Origin: Candidatus Moraniibacteriota bacterium | Lineage (GTDB): Bacteria > Patescibacteriota > Minisyncoccia > Moranbacterales > UBA2206 | Assembly (NCBI GenBank): GCA_026396175.1 | Contig: JAPLXG010000006.1 | Location: 2,895-66,894 of the forward strand | DNA: 64,000 nucleotides | Direction of reading: 5' to 3' | In this document: in pieces, positions 16,105 through 40,004 of the stretch | Numbering within the stretch: position 1 is the first letter of the stretch | Layout: the number at the start of each line of letters is the position of its first letter | Position numbers and translations under genes: made by a program | The notes under the pieces: generated by a model | The model's database searches: none | Seen by the model: only the letters and a program-made list of their open reading frames with translations | What the model was told of the DNA's origin: nothing

Positions 16105-18315
16105 ATGGCAAATATCTTAGAAAATTTAAATCAATCGCAACGCGAGGCGGTGGAAACGACGGAAGGCGCGGTTTTAGTGATTGCTGGCGCCGGATCGGGA
16201 AAAACGCGAGCGTTGACTTTTCGCACTGCCTATTTGATTTGCGAAAAAGGCGTGCGGCCCGGGCAAATTTTGGCGGTAACTTTCACCAATAAGGCGGCCA
16301 AGGAAATGCAAGAGCGGATTGCGCAGCTATTGGCGGACAGTGGTTTCAAAGGAAAGCTACCATTGGTTGGTACATTTCATTCTATTTGTGCTAGAATTCT
16401 CCGCTCAGAGATTGGCAAGTTGGGTTTTGAAAGCAATTTTAACATCTTCGATGCGCAGGATCAGCAGAGTTTGGTGAAAAAAACGATGAAAGAATTGGGC
16501 GTTGATCCGACGCAATTTCGTCCACAAAGTATTCTCGGTGCCATTTCTAAGGCCAAAAATGAACTAATTGATGCAAAAATGTTTCAAGAAAGAGTCGGTG
16601 GCTATTGGGAAGAAATTGTCTCGAAAGTCTACGTCGCCTATCAGGAACGGCTCAAAAAGAATAACGCGCTGGATTTTGATGACATCTTAATGTTACTCGT
16701 TCAAATTTTCCGCACTTTTCCAGAAGTGCTCGAGAAATATCAAAACATCTTTCGCTATATTATGGTGGACGAATATCAAGATACCAATCATGCGCAGTAT
16801 ATGCTCATTAAGATGCTAGCTGATAAGCACAAAAACATTTGCGTCGTCGGGGACGACTGGCAAGGGATTTATTCTTGGCGCGGAGCCAATATCCAAAACA
16901 TTTTGGATTTTGAAAAAGACTATCCAGCCGCGAAGGTTGTGAAATTGGAACAAAATTATCGCTCCACTCAGCAAATCTTGGACGCGGCTTATGGTGTGAT
17001 TTCCAAAAATATCAATCGCAAAGATAAGAAAATATGGACGGAGAATAAAACGGGACATCTCTTGGCTTCCTATGAAGCCGATGATGAGAGCGATGAAGCG
17101 CAGTTTATTGTTTCGGAGGTAATTAGTTTAAGAAATAAGGGTGTAAAACTCAATAACATCGTTGTGCTTTATAGGACCAATGCCCAGTCGCGGATCATTG
17201 AAGAAGCGCTACTTGGCGATTCCATCCCATATCGGATTATTGGTGGATTGAAATTCTACCAAAGAAAAGAAATCAAAGATATTATTGCCTATTTGCGTTT
17301 GATTGAGAATTTTAATGACGAAATTTCTTTGGAGCGGATCATAAACGAACCGAAGAGGGGGATTGGTGATAAGACGGTGGAAAAGTGGGTTATGGCTGCC
17401 AAAGAGGCTAGCTTGAGCCTGATTGATGCCGGCTCTAAAATTTCCAATTTCCAATTTCCAACCTTGCCTACCGGCAGGCAGGTTTCCAATCAAATTCAAA
17501 TTTCAAATGACAAGATTAGTAAATTAAGAGCGGAGAGCATTATAAAGTTTTGCGATTTTATTAAGCGGATGAGTGAGGTGAGAAATAAGCTGACATTGGC
17601 GGATTTTGTTCAGAAAGTTTTTTCCGAAAGTGGCTACGAGCGGCAGTTGCTTGATGGAACAGATGAGGGGCAGATGCGGCAAGAAAATGTGCGGGAACTC
17701 GTCACTGTTGCCAAAAAATACGACGCTTTTAAGGATGGTGAGGGTTTGCGACTGTTCCTGGAAGAAGTGGCGCTTGTGGCGGACACGGACAACATCGATC
17801 AGTCCAGCGAAGCCGTGCATCTAATGACACTGCACAGTGCTAAGGGTTTAGAATTTCAATATGTGTTTATTATCGGTCTAGAAGAAGGCATCTTGCCGCA
17901 TTCGCGCAGTATGCTTAGTGAAACTGAAATGGAAGAAGAGCGGCGGCTGATGTATGTGGGAATCACGCGTGCCAAGCAAAAAGTTTATCTGCTTTTCACC
18001 AAGATGCGCACAATTTTTGGTTCGACCCAAATTAATGCGCCTTCAAGATTTCTTGATGATATTCCCGCGGAGTTGATTGAAAATGCTGAAAACTCAATCA
18101 TAAATGCTTGCGTGGAAAAGTATGCTACCGCCAGAAAAAAAACTATTCTGACGGAAATGAAAACAAGCTACAAAGGCGGAGAAAGAATTAGTCACGAAAA
18201 ATTTGGCGAAGGACTGGTAATTTCTTCGCAAGGCGATATTATTACTGTGGCTTTTAAGAAAGTGGGTCTGAAAAAACTTTCCAGCTCTTTGGCGCCGATT
18301 CGGAAAATAGAATAA
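16105..18315 (+). CDS. pcrA: ATP-dependent DNA helicase PcrA/UvrD
   Basis: Walker A AGAGSGKTR and UvrD helicase motifs; in-frame insertion (..FQFPTLPTGRQVSNQIQISNDKI..) built from the CTACCGGCAGGCAGG palindrome flanked by AAATTTCAAAT-type repeats at ~17440-17525. Confidence 0.9.
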   Translation: MANILENLNQSQREAVETTEGAVLVIAGAGSGKTRALTFRTAYLICEKGVRPGQILAVTFTNKAAKEMQERIAQLLADSGFKGKLPLVGTFHSICARILRSEIGKLGFESNFNIFDAQDQQSLVKKTMKELGVDPTQFRPQSILGAISKAKNELIDAKMFQERVGGYWEEIVSKVYVAYQERLKKNNALDFDDILMLLVQIFRTFPEVLEKYQNIFRYIMVDEYQDTNHAQYMLIKMLADKHKNICVVGDDWQGIYSWRGANIQNILDFEKDYPAAKVVKLEQNYRSTQQILDAAYGVISKNINRKDKKIWTENKTGHLLASYEADDESDEAQFIVSEVISLRNKGVKLNNIVVLYRTNAQSRIIEEALLGDSIPYRIIGGLKFYQRKEIKDIIAYLRLIENFNDEISLERIINEPKRGIGDKTVEKWVMAAKEASLSLIDAGSKISNFQFPTLPTGRQVSNQIQISNDKISKLRAESIIKFCDFIKRMSEVRNKLTLADFVQKVFSESGYERQLLDGTDEGQMRQENVRELVTVAKKYDAFKDGEGLRLFLEEVALVADTDNIDQSSEAVHLMTLHSAKGLEFQYVFIIGLEEGILPHSRSMLSETEMEEERRLMYVGITRAKQKVYLLFTKMRTIFGSTQINAPSRFLDDIPAELIENAENSIINACVEKYATARKKTILTEMKTSYKGGERISHEKFGEGLVISSQGDIITVAFKKVGLKKLSSSLAPIRKIE
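17464..17482. repeat. Family D 20-bp palindrome CCTGCCTGCCGGTAGGCAGG inside pcrA (also at 15944-15963, 29049-29068, 30894-30913, 38871-38892, 62257-62276)
   Basis: Exact or near-exact copies; the in-CDS copies (pcrA, cca, nfo) are all read in the LP(A/T)GRQ frame. Confidence 0.75.
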
Positions 18316-28984: not shown

Positions 28985-29093
28985 AAGTTTTGAAAAATAA
29001 ATTTATTGTGTAGTTTTCCAAAATATTGATTCGCATGTCCCCCATTCGCCTGCCTGCCGGTAGGCAGGTAGTGGGGGTTCGCGAAGCGAATAA

Positions 29094-30574: not shown

Positions 30575-30735
30575 AAATATCCTCCTCTCCCTTAGGGAGA
30601 GGATGTCCGAAGGACAGGTGAGGGAAAGGGCTTTGTGCTACTGGAGAGCTATATTCTTCGTAGTATGTCCACTCCCTCATCCGGCCTTTGGCCACCTTCT
30701 CCCTAATGGAGAAGGGGAAATAAATTATAAAAAAA
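30575..30735. repeat. Family B composite palindromic repeat
   Basis: CTCTCCCTTAGGGAGAGGATGTCCGAAGGACAGGTGAGGGAAAGGG ... CCCTCATCCGGCCTTTGGCCACCTTCTCCCTAATGGAGAAGGGG. Confidence 0.7.
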
Positions 30736-30930
30736 TTTCCAAACAGTTGTGGAAATTATTAAGAGTGTGCCAATGAAGGCTCGAAAGTCAGGAATTAAAG
30801 CATCCCCTATTCAATTTTTCTTAATAATTAACGTAAATTGAGTATACTCCACCTTTTTTGTTTTGGCAAGTGATTGTGCCCTCAGTAGGAATCCCTGCCT
30901 GCCGGCAGGCAGGGAACCTTCTGGATTGTG

Positions 30931-31220: not shown

Positions 31221-33278
31221 ATGGCAAATTTAACTGAAAAATCGCAAGAAATCTGGGAAAAAATCAAAAAACAGCCAAAAGACATTTGGTTTTTCTATTT
31301 GTTTTTATTGACTTTTACGCTTGGGGTAAGAAAAGTAATATTATACTTTCCCTTGAAAGGTGCCTTTAACGAATACACCGGCGCATACGTTTATGCTTCT
31401 GATATATTCTTGTGTCTTACGATCATAGCCTGGGTCGTATCTATATTATACAACAAAATAGCATTATCGTCAAGTAACAGCGAAGCTGTTTCTGAAGTTA
31501 TCCACAGGATGGATGGTGGCGAAAAAGAGGAATTTAAAGTTAGCCATAAGTTATCCACAGGAAAATTTGCTTATTTTAAAGCATTTTTTTCCAGGATGTG
31601 GAAAATGTTCCACGTGGAACAATTTTACAATCAGAATTCAAGAAAATGTTCCACCCTCCTGCGCCAAGGCTTCGGCGGGCAAGCGTGGAACATTTTGAGT
31701 GGATTGGGTACTATTCCCCTGCTTTTGGTCATTTGGTCATTCATATCGGTCTTTTGGTCAGAAAATCAAGTAATTAGTGTTTGTAGATCTATTAAGTTTT
31801 TTGAACTGTATCTTCTGTTTATTTATATATCCATCAGATTCGTGCCATACTGCTTACTCAATTGTTCCACGTGGAACAATCTGCAATCTGGAAATGTTCC
31901 ACCCTCCTGCGCCGAGGCTTCGGCGGGCAGGCGTGGAACATTTTCAAATACAGAGGATGGTGGTGATGCTAAAATGTTCCACGTGGAACAATTTAGCTAC
32001 GTTTTGTCGAAAATGGCTAAATATTTCCGCGCAATCTTGTTGGGGCTGGTAGTAATTGCGCTGTTTGACCACTATTTGTGGGATATTTGGCAAGGTCAGG
32101 TCTTGTTTTGGCTGGTTTGTGGCGTTTTGGCAGGAGTTAGTTTTGGCGAGCAGTTTAATCTGAAAAAATGTTCCACGTGGAACATTTTCGAGAGTACTAT
32201 CAGTGAAATTGTTCCACGTGGAACAATTTATGCGGGGCGTCTGTTTTTCGGCATAATTATGCTTCTTGGTGTGACACAGTCTCTGATCGGAATTGCTCAA
32301 TTTATTGTTCAGCACTCAATCGGGCTATTTTGGCTCAAAGAAAGCCTAATTGGGCAAAGTATTCCCGGAGTGGCAAAGATTATCGCTAATCATCATGTTC
32401 TTATCCGTTCCTATGGCCTCTTTCCTCATCCAAATATCCTGGGGGGATTTTTGTTTTTTTCTATCATGATTACGCTTCTGTATAGAAAAATGTTCCACCC
32501 CGAAGAATCTGAAAATGTTCCACGTGGAACATTTTCAAATCACGGGACAGGCGCGGAACATACCGAGGAGAAAAATAATGTGAATTGTTCCACGTGGAAC
32601 AATTTTAGGCAAGTATGGAAAAATGTTCCACGTGGAACATTTTGGATATTACTAAAAGAAAAAGTGCTTATTATGGGCAATGTTATTAATTTAATATTGC
32701 TGATTCAGATATTTGGAATTCTTCTTTCCTTTTCTAAGTCAGCCGTTCTTACCTTACTCATTGCGCTTACTTATATAAATGTTCCACGTGGAACATTTTG
32801 GGGTAAGCGTGGAAAATCGTTTCACCCCGAAAAATCTGAAATTGTTCCACGTGGAACAATTTCAGATCACGGGGCAGGCGTGGAGCGATTTAGGATATTA
32901 CTTGGTTTGGGATTGGCCGTATTGGCAGGACTGTTTTTTCTTAGAGTCGAATTTTATGCCTTATTTATGAAGTCGCTTGCAGAAAGAGGGTTGTATTTGT
33001 CTATCTCCGAGCGGATAATTACAGATAATCCGATTATTGGGGTTGGCACTGGCCAGTTCATCGTGGCCGCAGAGAGGTTATTCCCAAATCTTGAGATCTG
33101 GCAATATCAGCCAGTGCATAATGTTTTTCTTTTAATTTGGTCAGAATGGGGGATTGTCGGGTTGGTTTTGTTTATTGTGTTTTTGTGGAAATTGTTCCAC
33201 GTGGAACAATTCTGTGAAAAGCCTCTTCTCCCTCAGGGAGAGGACCTGCCCGAAATGCAAATCGTTGCAGGCGGGTGA
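31221..33278 (+). CDS. O-antigen ligase/Wzy_C-like polytopic membrane protein interrupted by at least 14 in-frame 20-24 bp palindromes
   Basis: Wzy_C-like block PVHNVFLLIWSEWGIVGL and GVGTGQF; the ORF stays open through every ATGTTCCACGTGGAACAT copy, read as MFHVEQF / CSTWNNF / NVPRGTF depending on phase. Confidence 0.6.
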   Translation: MANLTEKSQEIWEKIKKQPKDIWFFYLFLLTFTLGVRKVILYFPLKGAFNEYTGAYVYASDIFLCLTIIAWVVSILYNKIALSSSNSEAVSEVIHRMDGGEKEEFKVSHKLSTGKFAYFKAFFSRMWKMFHVEQFYNQNSRKCSTLLRQGFGGQAWNILSGLGTIPLLLVIWSFISVFWSENQVISVCRSIKFFELYLLFIYISIRFVPYCLLNCSTWNNLQSGNVPPSCAEASAGRRGTFSNTEDGGDAKMFHVEQFSYVLSKMAKYFRAILLGLVVIALFDHYLWDIWQGQVLFWLVCGVLAGVSFGEQFNLKKCSTWNIFESTISEIVPRGTIYAGRLFFGIIMLLGVTQSLIGIAQFIVQHSIGLFWLKESLIGQSIPGVAKIIANHHVLIRSYGLFPHPNILGGFLFFSIMITLLYRKMFHPEESENVPRGTFSNHGTGAEHTEEKNNVNCSTWNNFRQVWKNVPRGTFWILLKEKVLIMGNVINLILLIQIFGILLSFSKSAVLTLLIALTYINVPRGTFWGKRGKSFHPEKSEIVPRGTISDHGAGVERFRILLGLGLAVLAGLFFLRVEFYALFMKSLAERGLYLSISERIITDNPIIGVGTGQFIVAAERLFPNLEIWQYQPVHNVFLLIWSEWGIVGLVLFIVFLWKLFHVEQFCEKPLLPQGEDLPEMQIVAGG
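31600..33210. repeat. Family G: at least 14 copies of the perfect palindrome (A)ATGTTCCACGTGGAACAT(T) / ATTGTTCCACGTGGAACAAT, some nested in a larger palindrome TGTTCCACCCCGAA..AATCTGAAA[core]TTTCA..ATCACGGGGCAGGCGTGGA
   Basis: Copies at ~31603, 31640-31695 (split), 31860, 31890-31945 (split), 31973, 32165, 32205, 32490-32570 (nested), 32583, 32615, 32777, 32808-32890 (nested), 33185. Confidence 0.8.
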
Positions 33279-33300
33279 CCGAAGGACAGGTGAGGGATGG
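33215..33300. repeat. Family B half-element at the 3' end of the O-antigen-ligase-like gene
   Basis: CTCTTCTCCCTCAGGGAGAGGACCTGCCCGAAATG...GACCGAAGGACAGGTGAGGGATGGGC. Confidence 0.55.
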
Positions 33301-38372: not shown

Positions 38373-40004
38373 ATGTCGAGGGAAAATTCGCTATTTCAGA
38401 AATTTTTTGCTAGAATGGTGAATATGAAAAAGGAAAAACTGGCTAAATTTGATATTCCTGCCCATATTCTTTTGGTGATGGAAAAGCTGGAAGAGGCGGG
38501 ATTTGAGGCATATGTCGTGGGCGGTTGCGTGCGGGATTTGCTAATGGGGCTCATACCTAAGGATTGGGATATCGCGACGAATGCTAAGCCGGAAGATGTG
38601 CAAAAAATATTTCCTGATTCTGTTTATGAAAATGAATTTGGGACGGTGGGGATCAAGATCAGAAATCAGAAGTCAGTGAACAGCGAACAGGAAACCGAAG
38701 AAAAAGAAATAACAGAAGTGGTTGAGGTGACAACCTATCGCATTGAATCAACATATTCCGATAAAAGGCATCCGGATGCGGTGAAGTTCGCGAAAACTTT
38801 GGAGGAAGATTTGTCTAGGCGTGATTTTACGATCAATGCGTTGGCGCTTGGGGTCAGTGATCAGAAATCCTTGCCTACCGGCAGGCAGGCAGTGAACAGT
38901 AAACAGAAAAAGATTGAAAAAATAGATGGTACTAAGTTTGAGCTAATAGATTTGTTTTCTGGACAGGAGGATTTGGAAAATAAATTAATTCGAGCGGTGG
39001 GGGATGCTAACGAAAGATTCAACGAAGACGCGCTGCGGATGATGCGGGCGATTCGGTTTTCGGTGACGCTGGATTTTGTGATTGAGGAAAAAACATTTGT
39101 GGCGATTCAAAAAAATGCGTCCAATTTAAAATTTATTTCGCCAGAAAGAATTCGAGATGAATTTTCGAAAATTATTTCGTCGCCAAGTCCGGCGAAAGGC
39201 ATTGAACGACTGCAAGAAACAGGAATTTTGAAAATAATTTTGCCAGAAATTGAAAGTGGAATTGGTGTGATGCAAAGTCATCATCATTACCATGGACCAT
39301 ATAATACAGTGTACAAACATTTAGTGGCATCTTTGGAAAAATGTCCGTCGCCAAAATTAGAAGTGCGTTTGGCGTCATTGCTTCACGACGTGGGAAAGCC
39401 AAAATCAAAAAGAGGGGAAGGCGAAAATGCGACATTCTATAACCACGAATATATCGGAGAGCGGATGACGAAAAATATATTGGAACGTCTGCGTTTTTCG
39501 CGGAGCGTGATTGATAAGGTGACGCTTTTGGTGCGAAATCATATGTTCTATTATAACGTTGACGAAGTGGGTGAAGCGGGTGTGCGGCGTGTGGTGCAAA
39601 AAATCGGGCTGGAAAATATCGGTGACCTAATTGACGTGCGGATTGCTGATCGTCTTGGTAGTGGCGTGCCGAAAGCGGTGCCCTATAAACTGCGTCATTT
39701 TCAGTTTATGGTGGAAAAAGTTTCCCACGACGCGATTTCTGTAAAACAGCTAAAACTGAACGGTAATGATTTGATGGAAGAACTCAATGTTGCTCCCGGA
39801 CCAAAAATCGGTGCGATTTTGGCCGTTTTGCTTTCGCAAGTGATTGATGATCCAGCACTTAATGACAAGAAAAAACTATTGGCATTGGCAAAAGAGTTGG
39901 CCAAAAGTAAGGTAGAGGATTTACGCAAGATGGCGGAGGAGAAAATTAAAAAGGAGCAAAAAAAAGAAGAAGAATTGATAAAGAAAAAACATAAGGTCAG
40001 TTAA
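38373..40004 (+). CDS. cca: CCA-adding tRNA nucleotidyltransferase with HD domain
   Basis: GGCVRDLLMG..DWD pol-beta motif, HD domain; in-frame palindrome-derived insert SLPTGRQAVNSKQ; start may be a downstream Met. Confidence 0.8.
   Translation: MSRENSLFQKFFARMVNMKKEKLAKFDIPAHILLVMEKLEEAGFEAYVVGGCVRDLLMGLIPKDWDIATNAKPEDVQKIFPDSVYENEFGTVGIKIRNQKSVNSEQETEEKEITEVVEVTTYRIESTYSDKRHPDAVKFAKTLEEDLSRRDFTINALALGVSDQKSLPTGRQAVNSKQKKIEKIDGTKFELIDLFSGQEDLENKLIRAVGDANERFNEDALRMMRAIRFSVTLDFVIEEKTFVAIQKNASNLKFISPERIRDEFSKIISSPSPAKGIERLQETGILKIILPEIESGIGVMQSHHHYHGPYNTVYKHLVASLEKCPSPKLEVRLASLLHDVGKPKSKRGEGENATFYNHEYIGERMTKNILERLRFSRSVIDKVTLLVRNHMFYYNVDEVGEAGVRRVVQKIGLENIGDLIDVRIADRLGSGVPKAVPYKLRHFQFMVEKVSHDAISVKQLKLNGNDLMEELNVAPGPKIGAILAVLLSQVIDDPALNDKKKLLALAKELAKSKVEDLRKMAEEKIKKEQKKEEELIKKKHKVS

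Follow-up and report, generated by a model that had tools for sequence, protein, structure and literature searches.

How can a single gene be filled with copies of a perfect palindrome and still encode a protein, and what would such palindromes be for? This question is raised by a 64-kb stretch of DNA from Candidatus Moraniibacteriota bacterium (contig JAPLXG010000006.1), which as a whole is called the window here and on which all coordinates are given, unless another locus is named. Its open reading frame (ORF) 31221-33278 had been described in an initial annotation, made from the sequence alone, as a membrane-protein gene saturated with at least 14 in-frame copies of a CACGTG-centred palindrome, for which a palindrome-inserting activity, a phase-variation system and binding sites of a CACGTG-recognising protein were offered as possible readings. 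We propose that the palindromes are probably chromosomal parS sites, and that all parS copies seen are embedded in the loop-coding parts of one WaaL/Wzy_C-like gene by gyrA.

Results and discussion

Copies of the palindrome within one ORF

The exact 14-bp core GTTCCACGTGGAAC occurs 11 times between positions 31607 and 33207, always within the ORF 31221..33278(+) (Table 1), and no further copy with up to two mismatches is present elsewhere in the window, where 0.1 would be expected by chance; this agrees with the earlier statement that the palindrome is absent from the rest of the 64 kb. Each core is flanked by T and A, which extend it to the 16-mer TGTTCCACGTGGAACA, and A/T runs follow beyond (AAAWTGTTCCACGTGGAACAWTTT). 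Four other copies in the ORF are not intact: two are split at the dyad, their half-sites being parted by a 30-nt GC-rich imperfect hairpin, and two are degenerate outer copies, whose half-sites surround a spacer and an intact copy in nested palindromes of 73 nt. The figure of at least 14 copies is reached only when these split and degenerate copies are added to the 11 intact ones. As single strands, the split and nested copies fold beyond shuffled controls (z from -3.0 to -5.8).

The intact copies are read in three frames, giving the peptides FHVE (three times), STWN (three times) and VPRGT (five times), in accordance with the three insert peptides recognized before, and one frame does stay open for 685 codons. 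As had also been observed, the palindrome with its A/T flanks carries a stop codon in none of the six frames. Overlapping ORFs of 61-123 aa on both strands (31944-32315 (-), 31513-31698 (+), 31777-32052 (+) and 32779-32970 (+)) are most likely artefacts, because the palindromes lack stops in all frames. The spacing of the copies is irregular (25 to 350 bp) and they do not form tandem repeats of a fixed period; a plasmid-type centromere array, such as the iterons of sopC or parC, was rejected on account of this irregular spacing and of the location in coding DNA.

Table 1. Positions of the features discussed, on the window unless a related locus is named; "parS" denotes putative parS sites, and "." in the strand column a feature without orientation
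Feature	Position	Strand	Sequence or peptide	Remarks
GC-rich hairpin copy	17463-17488			in PcrA/UvrD ORF
GC-rich hairpin copy	29049-29078			intergenic
GC-rich hairpin copy	30894-30919			intergenic
Host gene	31221..33278	+		685-aa polytopic membrane protein, Wzy_C / WaaL-like O-antigen-ligase family (predicted)
DnaA box, perfect	31498..31506	+	TTATCCACA	frame reads EVIHRM
DnaA box, perfect	31551..31559	+	TTATCCACA	53 bp past the first, in another frame (KLSTGK)
DnaA-box-like, 8/9	31597..31605	-	TTTTCCACA	abuts the first parS
parS 1	31606..31621	.	TGTTCCACGTGGAACA; MFHVEQ	exact core match
Split parS	31644..31696	.	ATGTTCCAC / GTGGAACAT; STLLRQGFGGQAWN	30-nt GC-rich hairpin insert between half-sites; DNA fold -14.7 kcal/mol, z -3.0
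parS 2	31863..31878	.	CSTWNN	
Split parS	31892..31944	.	VPPSCAEASAGRRGT	30-nt GC-rich insert; 96% identical to 31644-31696, different frame
parS 3	31975..31990	.	MFHVEQ	
parS 4	32169..32184	.	CSTWNI	opens a pair 41 bp apart; parS in 7/12 orthologs
parS 5	32210..32225	.	IVPRGT	parS in 8/12 orthologs
Nested 73-nt palindrome	32485..32557	.	GTTCCAC ... GCGGAAC	degenerate outer half-sites; intact parS 6 at 32516-32531; DNA fold -17.6 kcal/mol, z -4.7; lineage-specific insertion, gap in 116/119 homologs
parS 7	32586..32601	.	CSTWNN	parS in 8/12 orthologs
parS 8	32624..32639	.	NVPRGT	parS in 10/12 orthologs
parS 9	32780..32795	.	NVPRGT	on conserved protein position; motif in 74/119 homologs, only 2 gaps
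Nested 73-nt palindrome	32812..32884	.		88% identical to 32485-32557; intact parS 10 at 32843-32858; DNA fold -21.9 kcal/mol, z -5.8
parS 11	33193..33208	.	KLFHVEQ	on conserved C-terminal LWKLFH motif, without insertion
Larger GC-rich repeat	33220..33300	.		gives the last ~20 codons of the ORF and its stop; related copies at 30582-30720
GC-rich hairpin copy	38870-38895			in CCA-enzyme ORF, reads LPTGRQ
Shorter Wzy_C homolog	L210 13419-14669			beside dnaA-dnaN-dciA
Shorter Wzy_C homolog	L195 9086-10423			beside dnaA-dnaN-dciA

Match of the palindrome to parS

TGTTCCACGTGGAACA is the symmetric form of the parS site TGTTCCACGTGAAACA of Bacillus subtilis, from which it differs in one base, and it matches the Myxococcus xanthus consensus TGTTCCACGTGGAACG in 15 of 16 bases; all 11 exact copies in the window conform to the 16-bp palindromic parS consensus TGTTNCACGTGNAACA. 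In B. subtilis the optimum parS is TGTTTCACGTGAAACA, while TGTTCCACGTGAAACA is the site in its parB gene (PMC4333373). The M. xanthus consensus is bound by ParB in electrophoretic mobility shift assays (PMC3899335), and half-sites GTTCCAC and GTTTCAC, the same as those of the split copies in the window, are bound by Pseudomonas aeruginosa ParB in vivo (PMC10419367). Among 440 sites, T is found at position -1 in 99% and A at +1 in 98%, and the core is GTTCCACGTGGAAC in 368, GTTTCACGTGGAAC in 42, GTTTCACGTGAAAC in 21 and GTTCCACGTGAAAC in 9. One ortholog (L002) carries three TGTTTCACGTGAAACA sites, and in another (L004) TGTTCCACGTGAAACA is mixed with the symmetric form TGTTCCACGTGGAACA, so that the variation among orthologs stays within the parS family. 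The earlier reading, in which a CACGTG-recognising protein binds to palindromes lying within a gene, was therefore essentially right, only that the site, which corresponds to parS by sequence match, had not been recognized.

As a control, one genome per species was scanned for two parS-like sites within 29-59 bp, which yielded at least 120 loci from Actinomycetota, Bacillota, Bacteroidota, Pseudomonadota and other phyla. Among the loci listed, a Spo0J/ParB homolog is encoded in the same 8-kb block in 50 of 120 and a Soj/ParA homolog in 53 of 120, hence such motif pairs mark ParABS loci across bacteria. A density of 10 sites per 8 kb is attained in only three of the listed loci, two of which belong to the Moranbacteria lineage. 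The third (L096 5923-7965), from a metagenome-assembled genome (MAG) of an uncultured member of Bacilli, has TGTTCCACGTGAAACA in 44-45-bp tandem repeats: four copies lie beside a sequence resembling the RNA of the signal recognition particle (ffs), and three more, with a 45-bp period, are in frame inside a dnaX-like ORF.

Selection at the level of DNA

The window protein was aligned with 12 orthologs, and codons specifying the same amino acid were compared. Under the parS sites of the window 321 of 343 such codons are identical (94%), versus 2074 of 3498 (59%) elsewhere, which corresponds to an odds ratio of 10 (Fisher p = 3e-44; the orthologs are related and p overstates their independence, the contrast nevertheless being large). 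Over the rest of the gene the synonymous divergence (dS) is 0.83-1.06 (about 0.9), and the identity of codons under parS despite this divergence argues that selection acts on the DNA. The DNA of the sites is conserved beyond coding need, and the use of all three frames, together with the codon identity, rules out a repeat at the protein level. Single sites are parS in up to 10 of the 12 orthologs, with alignment position and frame both unchanged. Orthologs with the same peptide segments in non-palindromic DNA had been named in advance as evidence against a palindromic element; in our comparison a shared peptide goes with shared palindromic DNA.

It had also been proposed to check whether the palindromes coincide with gaps in orthologs. 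This is the case for some sites, with two clear lineage-specific insertions, but others overlay conserved residues without any insertion: the site at 32780 falls on YINVPRGTF and that at 33193 on LWKLFHVE, which appears as LWKLFH.. in homologs without the site, while other lineages have YLNVSRGTI or YLNVPRGTF in place of the conserved stretch YLSISERII. Sites thus originate either through substitution in place or through insertion into a variable loop, and are maintained thereafter. The postulated palindrome-inserting activity is only partly supported, by the sites at gaps and by the GC-rich hairpin inserts at dyads described below, and not by the sites formed in place or by the many sites conserved across species. 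Since sites are conserved at orthologous positions, some of them without insertion, the pattern is that of selected sites and not of a selfish spreading element.

Confinement to one gene in related loci

Among the 120 best homologs of the protein, 112 carry parS peptides, up to 13 each; the search was seeded by shared words and could favour proteins with such peptides, therefore 80 metagenome loci were fetched by the C-terminal peptide motifs Q[YF]QPVHN[VI] and FLL..E.G, which are independent of parS. These loci contain 419 full parS sites in the gene span (171 kb) versus three in the flanks (526 kb), each of which is found immediately downstream of the gene. At least one site is present in 77 of 83 loci (median 5, maximum 13), and where the ORF is 5'-complete (63 loci), it alone accommodates 363 of 368 sites, distributed over the frames as 180/92/91. 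In 58 of these 63 loci every site is contained in an intact ORF, and the phase variation or recombination considered previously thus has no support. All loci examined share the synteny with gyrA and a Lactamase_B_3 gene, including those with the block inverted with respect to its neighbours, such as L004, in which Wzy_C-gyrA-Lactamase_B is inverted versus its flanks. The same architecture has been found in more than 80 independent contigs from NCBI, JGI, ENA and Logan, which rules out an assembly artefact. Dispersal over unrelated loci, as expected of a miniature inverted-repeat transposable element (MITE) or a Rickettsia palindromic element (RPE), is seen only for the GC-rich hairpin and not for the parS palindrome, in line with the initial annotation, which had set the palindrome apart from an ordinary dispersed MITE.

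The start-to-start distance of adjacent sites is most often 41 bp, which corresponds to about four helical turns and forms a sharp peak (41 pairs), the next peak being 50 bp (9 pairs); the peak is partly due to one conserved orthologous pair (32169/32210 in the window), and L004 contains a tripled 41+50-bp module. In Wzy_C homologs without canonical parS, palindromes with a changed centre (GTTTCATATGAAAC, GTTTCACATGAAAC) occur in the same gene (L174 4903, 5449, 5758; L162 67; L166 6072, 6366), which could be decaying sites or targets of a binder with shifted specificity. Outside the gene, CACGTG is found in the window twice versus about five times expected, a check for avoidance due to restriction-modification that is not informative.

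The host gene and its product

The window protein matches the Pfam family PF04932 (Wzy_C) in residues 492-652 with 47.1 bits (cut-off 31.7), and it is 100% identical to the 'O-antigen ligase family protein' of a Candidatus Moranbacteria MAG, from the Candidate Phyla Radiation (CPR). Hydropathy indicates 10 transmembrane (TM)-like segments, and an AlphaFold model based on a 60-sequence alignment (pTM 0.76) exhibits the WaaL fold of a polytopic membrane protein. With the parS sites left out, the ratio of nonsynonymous to synonymous divergence (dN/dS) against six orthologs is 0.25-0.32 (about 0.27). Taken together, these data argue that the host gene is a real gene under purifying selection, and its product is a predicted O-antigen ligase-like member of the Wzy_C / WaaL family, as initially assigned. 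The placement of the inserts in loops between helices was likewise borne out: 60 of the 66 parS-encoded residues lie outside the 10 TM-like segments, and they coincide with non-helical segments of the model in which the predicted local distance difference test (pLDDT) is below 50. The low-confidence non-helical segments comprise residues 99-113, 134-151, 217-253, 318-335, 433-471 and 531-551, and the parS peptides are found in them or at their edges, as are the DnaA boxes and both the split and the nested elements. The gene is flanked by larger GC-rich repeats (CCTCTCCCTnAGGGAGAGG ... CCGAAGGACAGGTGAGGG) at 30582-30720 and 33220-33300.

GC-rich hairpins at the parS dyads

In the related loci, 43 GC-rich inserts part two half-sites, and the lengths of 40 of them are divisible by three (21 nt in 17 cases, 30 nt in 16, 45 nt in three, 33 nt in two, 39 nt and 9 nt in one each), the remaining three, of 23 nt, being pieces of nested copies. 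The inserts occur in both orientations, and intact and split forms swap at orthologous positions between the window and its orthologs, both ways. The 21-nt insert is a hairpin, CCTGCCTACCGGACAGGCAGG, whose relatives are dispersed in these genomes outside the parS context, and the dispersed GC-rich hairpin CCTGCCTRCCGGCAGGCAGG stands in a low-GC genome, in-frame copies in unrelated genes included (Table 1). The parS dyad, or a position beside it, is thus a recurrent landing site of a dispersed GC-rich palindromic element, and the events seen in this ORF are almost exclusively in frame. A search of the window against Rfam returned two tRNAs only, matches to microRNA-like hairpins being far below threshold.

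Each insert at a dyad divides a full site into two half-sites like those to which P. aeruginosa ParB binds; in P. aeruginosa such half-sites are scattered genome-wide, whereas those of the window come from a hairpin that breaks a full site at its dyad. The route of insertion could be hairpin-tip-targeted insertion or template switching between hairpins. Elements entering the centre of another palindrome are known, as IS1397 and ISKpn1 insert into the loops of repetitive extragenic palindromic (REP) sequences; however, IS1397 is a full insertion sequence with a transposase, while the 21-30-nt inserts of the window encode nothing. The recurrent in-frame landing of hairpins exactly at parS dyads suggests that one palindrome is placed into another by an uncharacterised activity or by an error of replication.

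DnaA boxes and the question of the origin

Two perfect DnaA boxes and one near-perfect one precede the first parS in the ORF (Table 1). Across 83 related loci the density of perfect boxes is 0.41 per kb within the ORFs versus 0.03 per kb outside (51 and 20 boxes, respectively; a 14-fold difference). The boxes occupy the same loop, which follows the second TM segment, where they are read in different frames and form pairs in tandem, convergent or divergent orientation, or groups of up to four. The loop contains a perfect box in 25 of 63 loci and one with at most one mismatch in 36 of 63.

One could suppose that the gene contains or adjoins the replication origin, the DnaA boxes and parS forming an oriC-centromere module in coding DNA. 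Such a module would fit the conservation of 2-4 consensus boxes in one loop, followed by an A/T-rich stretch, the adjacency of gyrA in all loci examined, and the orientation of genes, which diverge from the locus, most of those left of 31.1 kb being on the - strand and most of those right of it on the + strand. Moreover, in a sister lineage of Parcubacteria without parS, a shorter Wzy_C homolog (416-445 aa) adjoins dnaA-dnaN-dciA, an arrangement that hints at an ancestral origin-proximal position of the gene family, and the dnaA regions of three other Parcubacteria, in which we found no parS, parAB or perfect DnaA boxes, do not contain a DnaA-box cluster. However, neither raw GC skew nor the skew at third codon positions (GC3) changes sign within the window, the latter being positive on the + strand both left and right of the locus, the boxes number only 2-4, and dnaA is absent from the window. 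An origin at this gene is therefore unlikely, and because of the constant sign of GC3 skew and the lack of dnaA we treat the boxes as a predicted conserved DnaA-binding cluster and not as oriC. At 19-34 kb the GC3 skew levels off close to zero, and at gyrA it jumps.

The presence of parS and DnaA boxes in a gene for a polytopic membrane protein also allows for a bolder proposal, namely that the host gene is no chance choice and that transertion, in which transcription and translation are coupled to membrane insertion, tethers the centromere to the membrane, partly replacing ParA-type positioning, or, in a weaker version, that the gene harbours the true origin. We regard this as improbable; if tethering by transertion were true, it would constitute a membrane-anchored mechanism of segregation or replication control in ultra-small, gene-poor bacteria.

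Evidence against parS and alternative explanations

Several observations weigh against the interpretation of the palindromes as parS. ParB and ParA were not found in the window (Pfam on 41 ORFs; tblastn) or in ~1.6 Mb of related loci, searched by tblastn with sequences of B. subtilis Spo0J, Soj and DnaA and with a hidden Markov model (HMM) built from 50 ParBs and run on all ORFs; in the window parAB is missing up to a distance of 30 kb, and in the 80 related loci up to 10 kb. The DUF4446 family adjoins parB in Firmicutes, and no ParB was found beside DUF4446 in the neighbourhoods of its genes in three genomes. Proximity to an origin, which is usual for parS, is not indicated by the GC3 skew, since on either side nearly all genes have positive values on the + strand, and dnaA is missing from the window according to both Pfam and tblastn. 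ParABS may be patchy in this radiation, given the three dnaA regions of Parcubacteria without parS and parAB. Besides, the compared loci are mutually related, so that independent events are fewer than the counts and the p-value would suggest. The presence of ParB in the host genome is assumed here, and that it would bind these sites is proposed because of the exact parS match and the conservation at the level of DNA. In the literature searched we found no link of parS or ParB with Moranbacteria, Parcubacteria or O-antigen ligase genes.

That no ParB gene was found in the DNA searched leaves room for the palindromes to be operators of another CACGTG-recognising regulator, or relics of a lost ParABS kept for other use, for instance in nucleoid organisation or in the control of a surface-polysaccharide gene. 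All sites lie in a single gene, as in an operator array, and the variants GTTTCATATGAAAC and GTTTCACATGAAAC suggest co-evolution with a binder of drifting specificity. Yet the match to parS spans 16 of 16 positions and extends beyond CACGTG, regulators rarely need 5-13 intragenic sites, and relics without a binder would not hold 94% codon identity at dS ~0.9, hence this explanation, too, is unlikely.

Very unlikely is a selfish miniature palindromic element, similar to MITEs or RPEs, that colonises tolerant loops and whose terminal inverted repeats (TIRs) resemble parS by chance; in such a family the perfect palindromes would represent the minimal form, TIR joined to TIR, and the split and nested ones would be larger members. 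The element is stop-free, does exist in nested and split forms, and occupies several positions that are gaps in most homologs, including two clear lineage-specific insertions. In-frame palindromic insertions are known from Rickettsia, where proteins tolerate them (PMC10969869), and the dispersed GC-rich hairpin of the window behaves likewise. However, RPEs measure ~150 bp, reside in many unrelated genes and lack a known binding protein, whereas the parS copies are 16-24 bp long, are limited to one gene and correspond to a known binding site. They are not dispersed (none outside the gene in 62 kb of the window, and three versus 419 across the 80 loci), they keep orthologous positions and frames across species with dS ~0.9, two of them sit on conserved residues without insertion, their variation remains within the parS family, and no target-site duplication is visible in their flanks, as judged by inspection only.

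Finally, a recombination or phase-variation device, in which palindromes drive in-frame deletions, duplications and inversions that vary the loops of an enzyme of surface polysaccharides, could draw on the many direct and inverted repeats within 2 kb, the range of 0 to 13 sites among homologs and the tripled module of L004, but it is extremely improbable in view of exact 16-mers of a known protein-binding site in three frames, positions stable across species, ORFs intact in 58 of 63 loci, and no linked recombinase other than a conserved XerC/D-like gene 11 kb away.

How the array may work

If the palindromes are parS, as we prefer to think, ParB dimers would bind each intact site, close as clamps in a manner dependent on cytidine triphosphate (CTP), and slide outward, and a dozen sites in 1.6 kb would act as one strong loading zone for the partition complex and probably also for SMC. 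Such an arrangement is possible because parS with A/T flanks is stop-free and because the linkers between helices tolerate insertions and odd peptides. Selection would keep the 16-mers exact in the DNA and independently keep the protein open and functional, so that one stretch serves two uses. With parS and 2-4 DnaA boxes in the first long loop, the gene looks like a shared platform for chromosome-maintenance proteins.

Comparison with known systems

A cis-acting replication element in the linker-coding part of a gene is exemplified by the ori of phage lambda, inside gene O; it belongs to a phage replicon and carries iterons for its own initiator, unlike the array in the window. The closest relatives of this array are found in chromosomal ParABS systems. 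B. subtilis ParB (Spo0J) recognizes the same 16-bp palindrome family, and at least one of its sites, in the parB gene itself, lies in coding sequence (PMC4333373), as do the sites in the window. The 8-10 sites of B. subtilis are spread origin-proximally, in contrast to 11 intact and four split or degenerate ones within 1.6 kb of one ORF, which, unlike in B. subtilis, use three frames of a host gene conserved across the related loci examined. M. xanthus possesses 22 sites in ~3 kb, with a near-identical consensus and a density of about one per 140 bp, similar to that of the window, and its array is located ~4 kb upstream of parA, whereas the Moranbacteria loci are without parAB nearby; the coding status of the M. 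xanthus array is not stated in the accessible part of the report (PMC3899335), while that of Moranbacteria is inside a protein-coding gene under purifying selection.

Dense chromosomal arrays of parS, as in M. xanthus, and a single parS in coding DNA in B. subtilis are therefore already known, and the earlier remark that no parallel had been described does not hold. What appears unusual is that every parS seen lies within one conserved membrane-protein ORF with three frames used, that the array is uncoupled from parAB and shares the ORF with DnaA boxes, and that its dyads are recurrently broken by a second palindromic element. We found no description of a gene-embedded parS array with these features in the literature searched.

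Conclusions

How chromosomes are segregated and replication is controlled has hardly been studied in the Candidate Phyla Radiation, and the locus described here provides a concrete cis element, a 2-kb gene that appears to hold the parS array of the lineage together with conserved DnaA boxes. It is an example of dual coding, with exact 16-bp sites in three frames within a protein under purifying selection, and it shows how gene-dense genomes can house large cis-acting arrays. The array may serve as a sequence marker of the ParB loading zone in Moranbacteria MAGs and, with intact, split and nested sites side by side, as a substrate for work on ParB and CTP in vitro.

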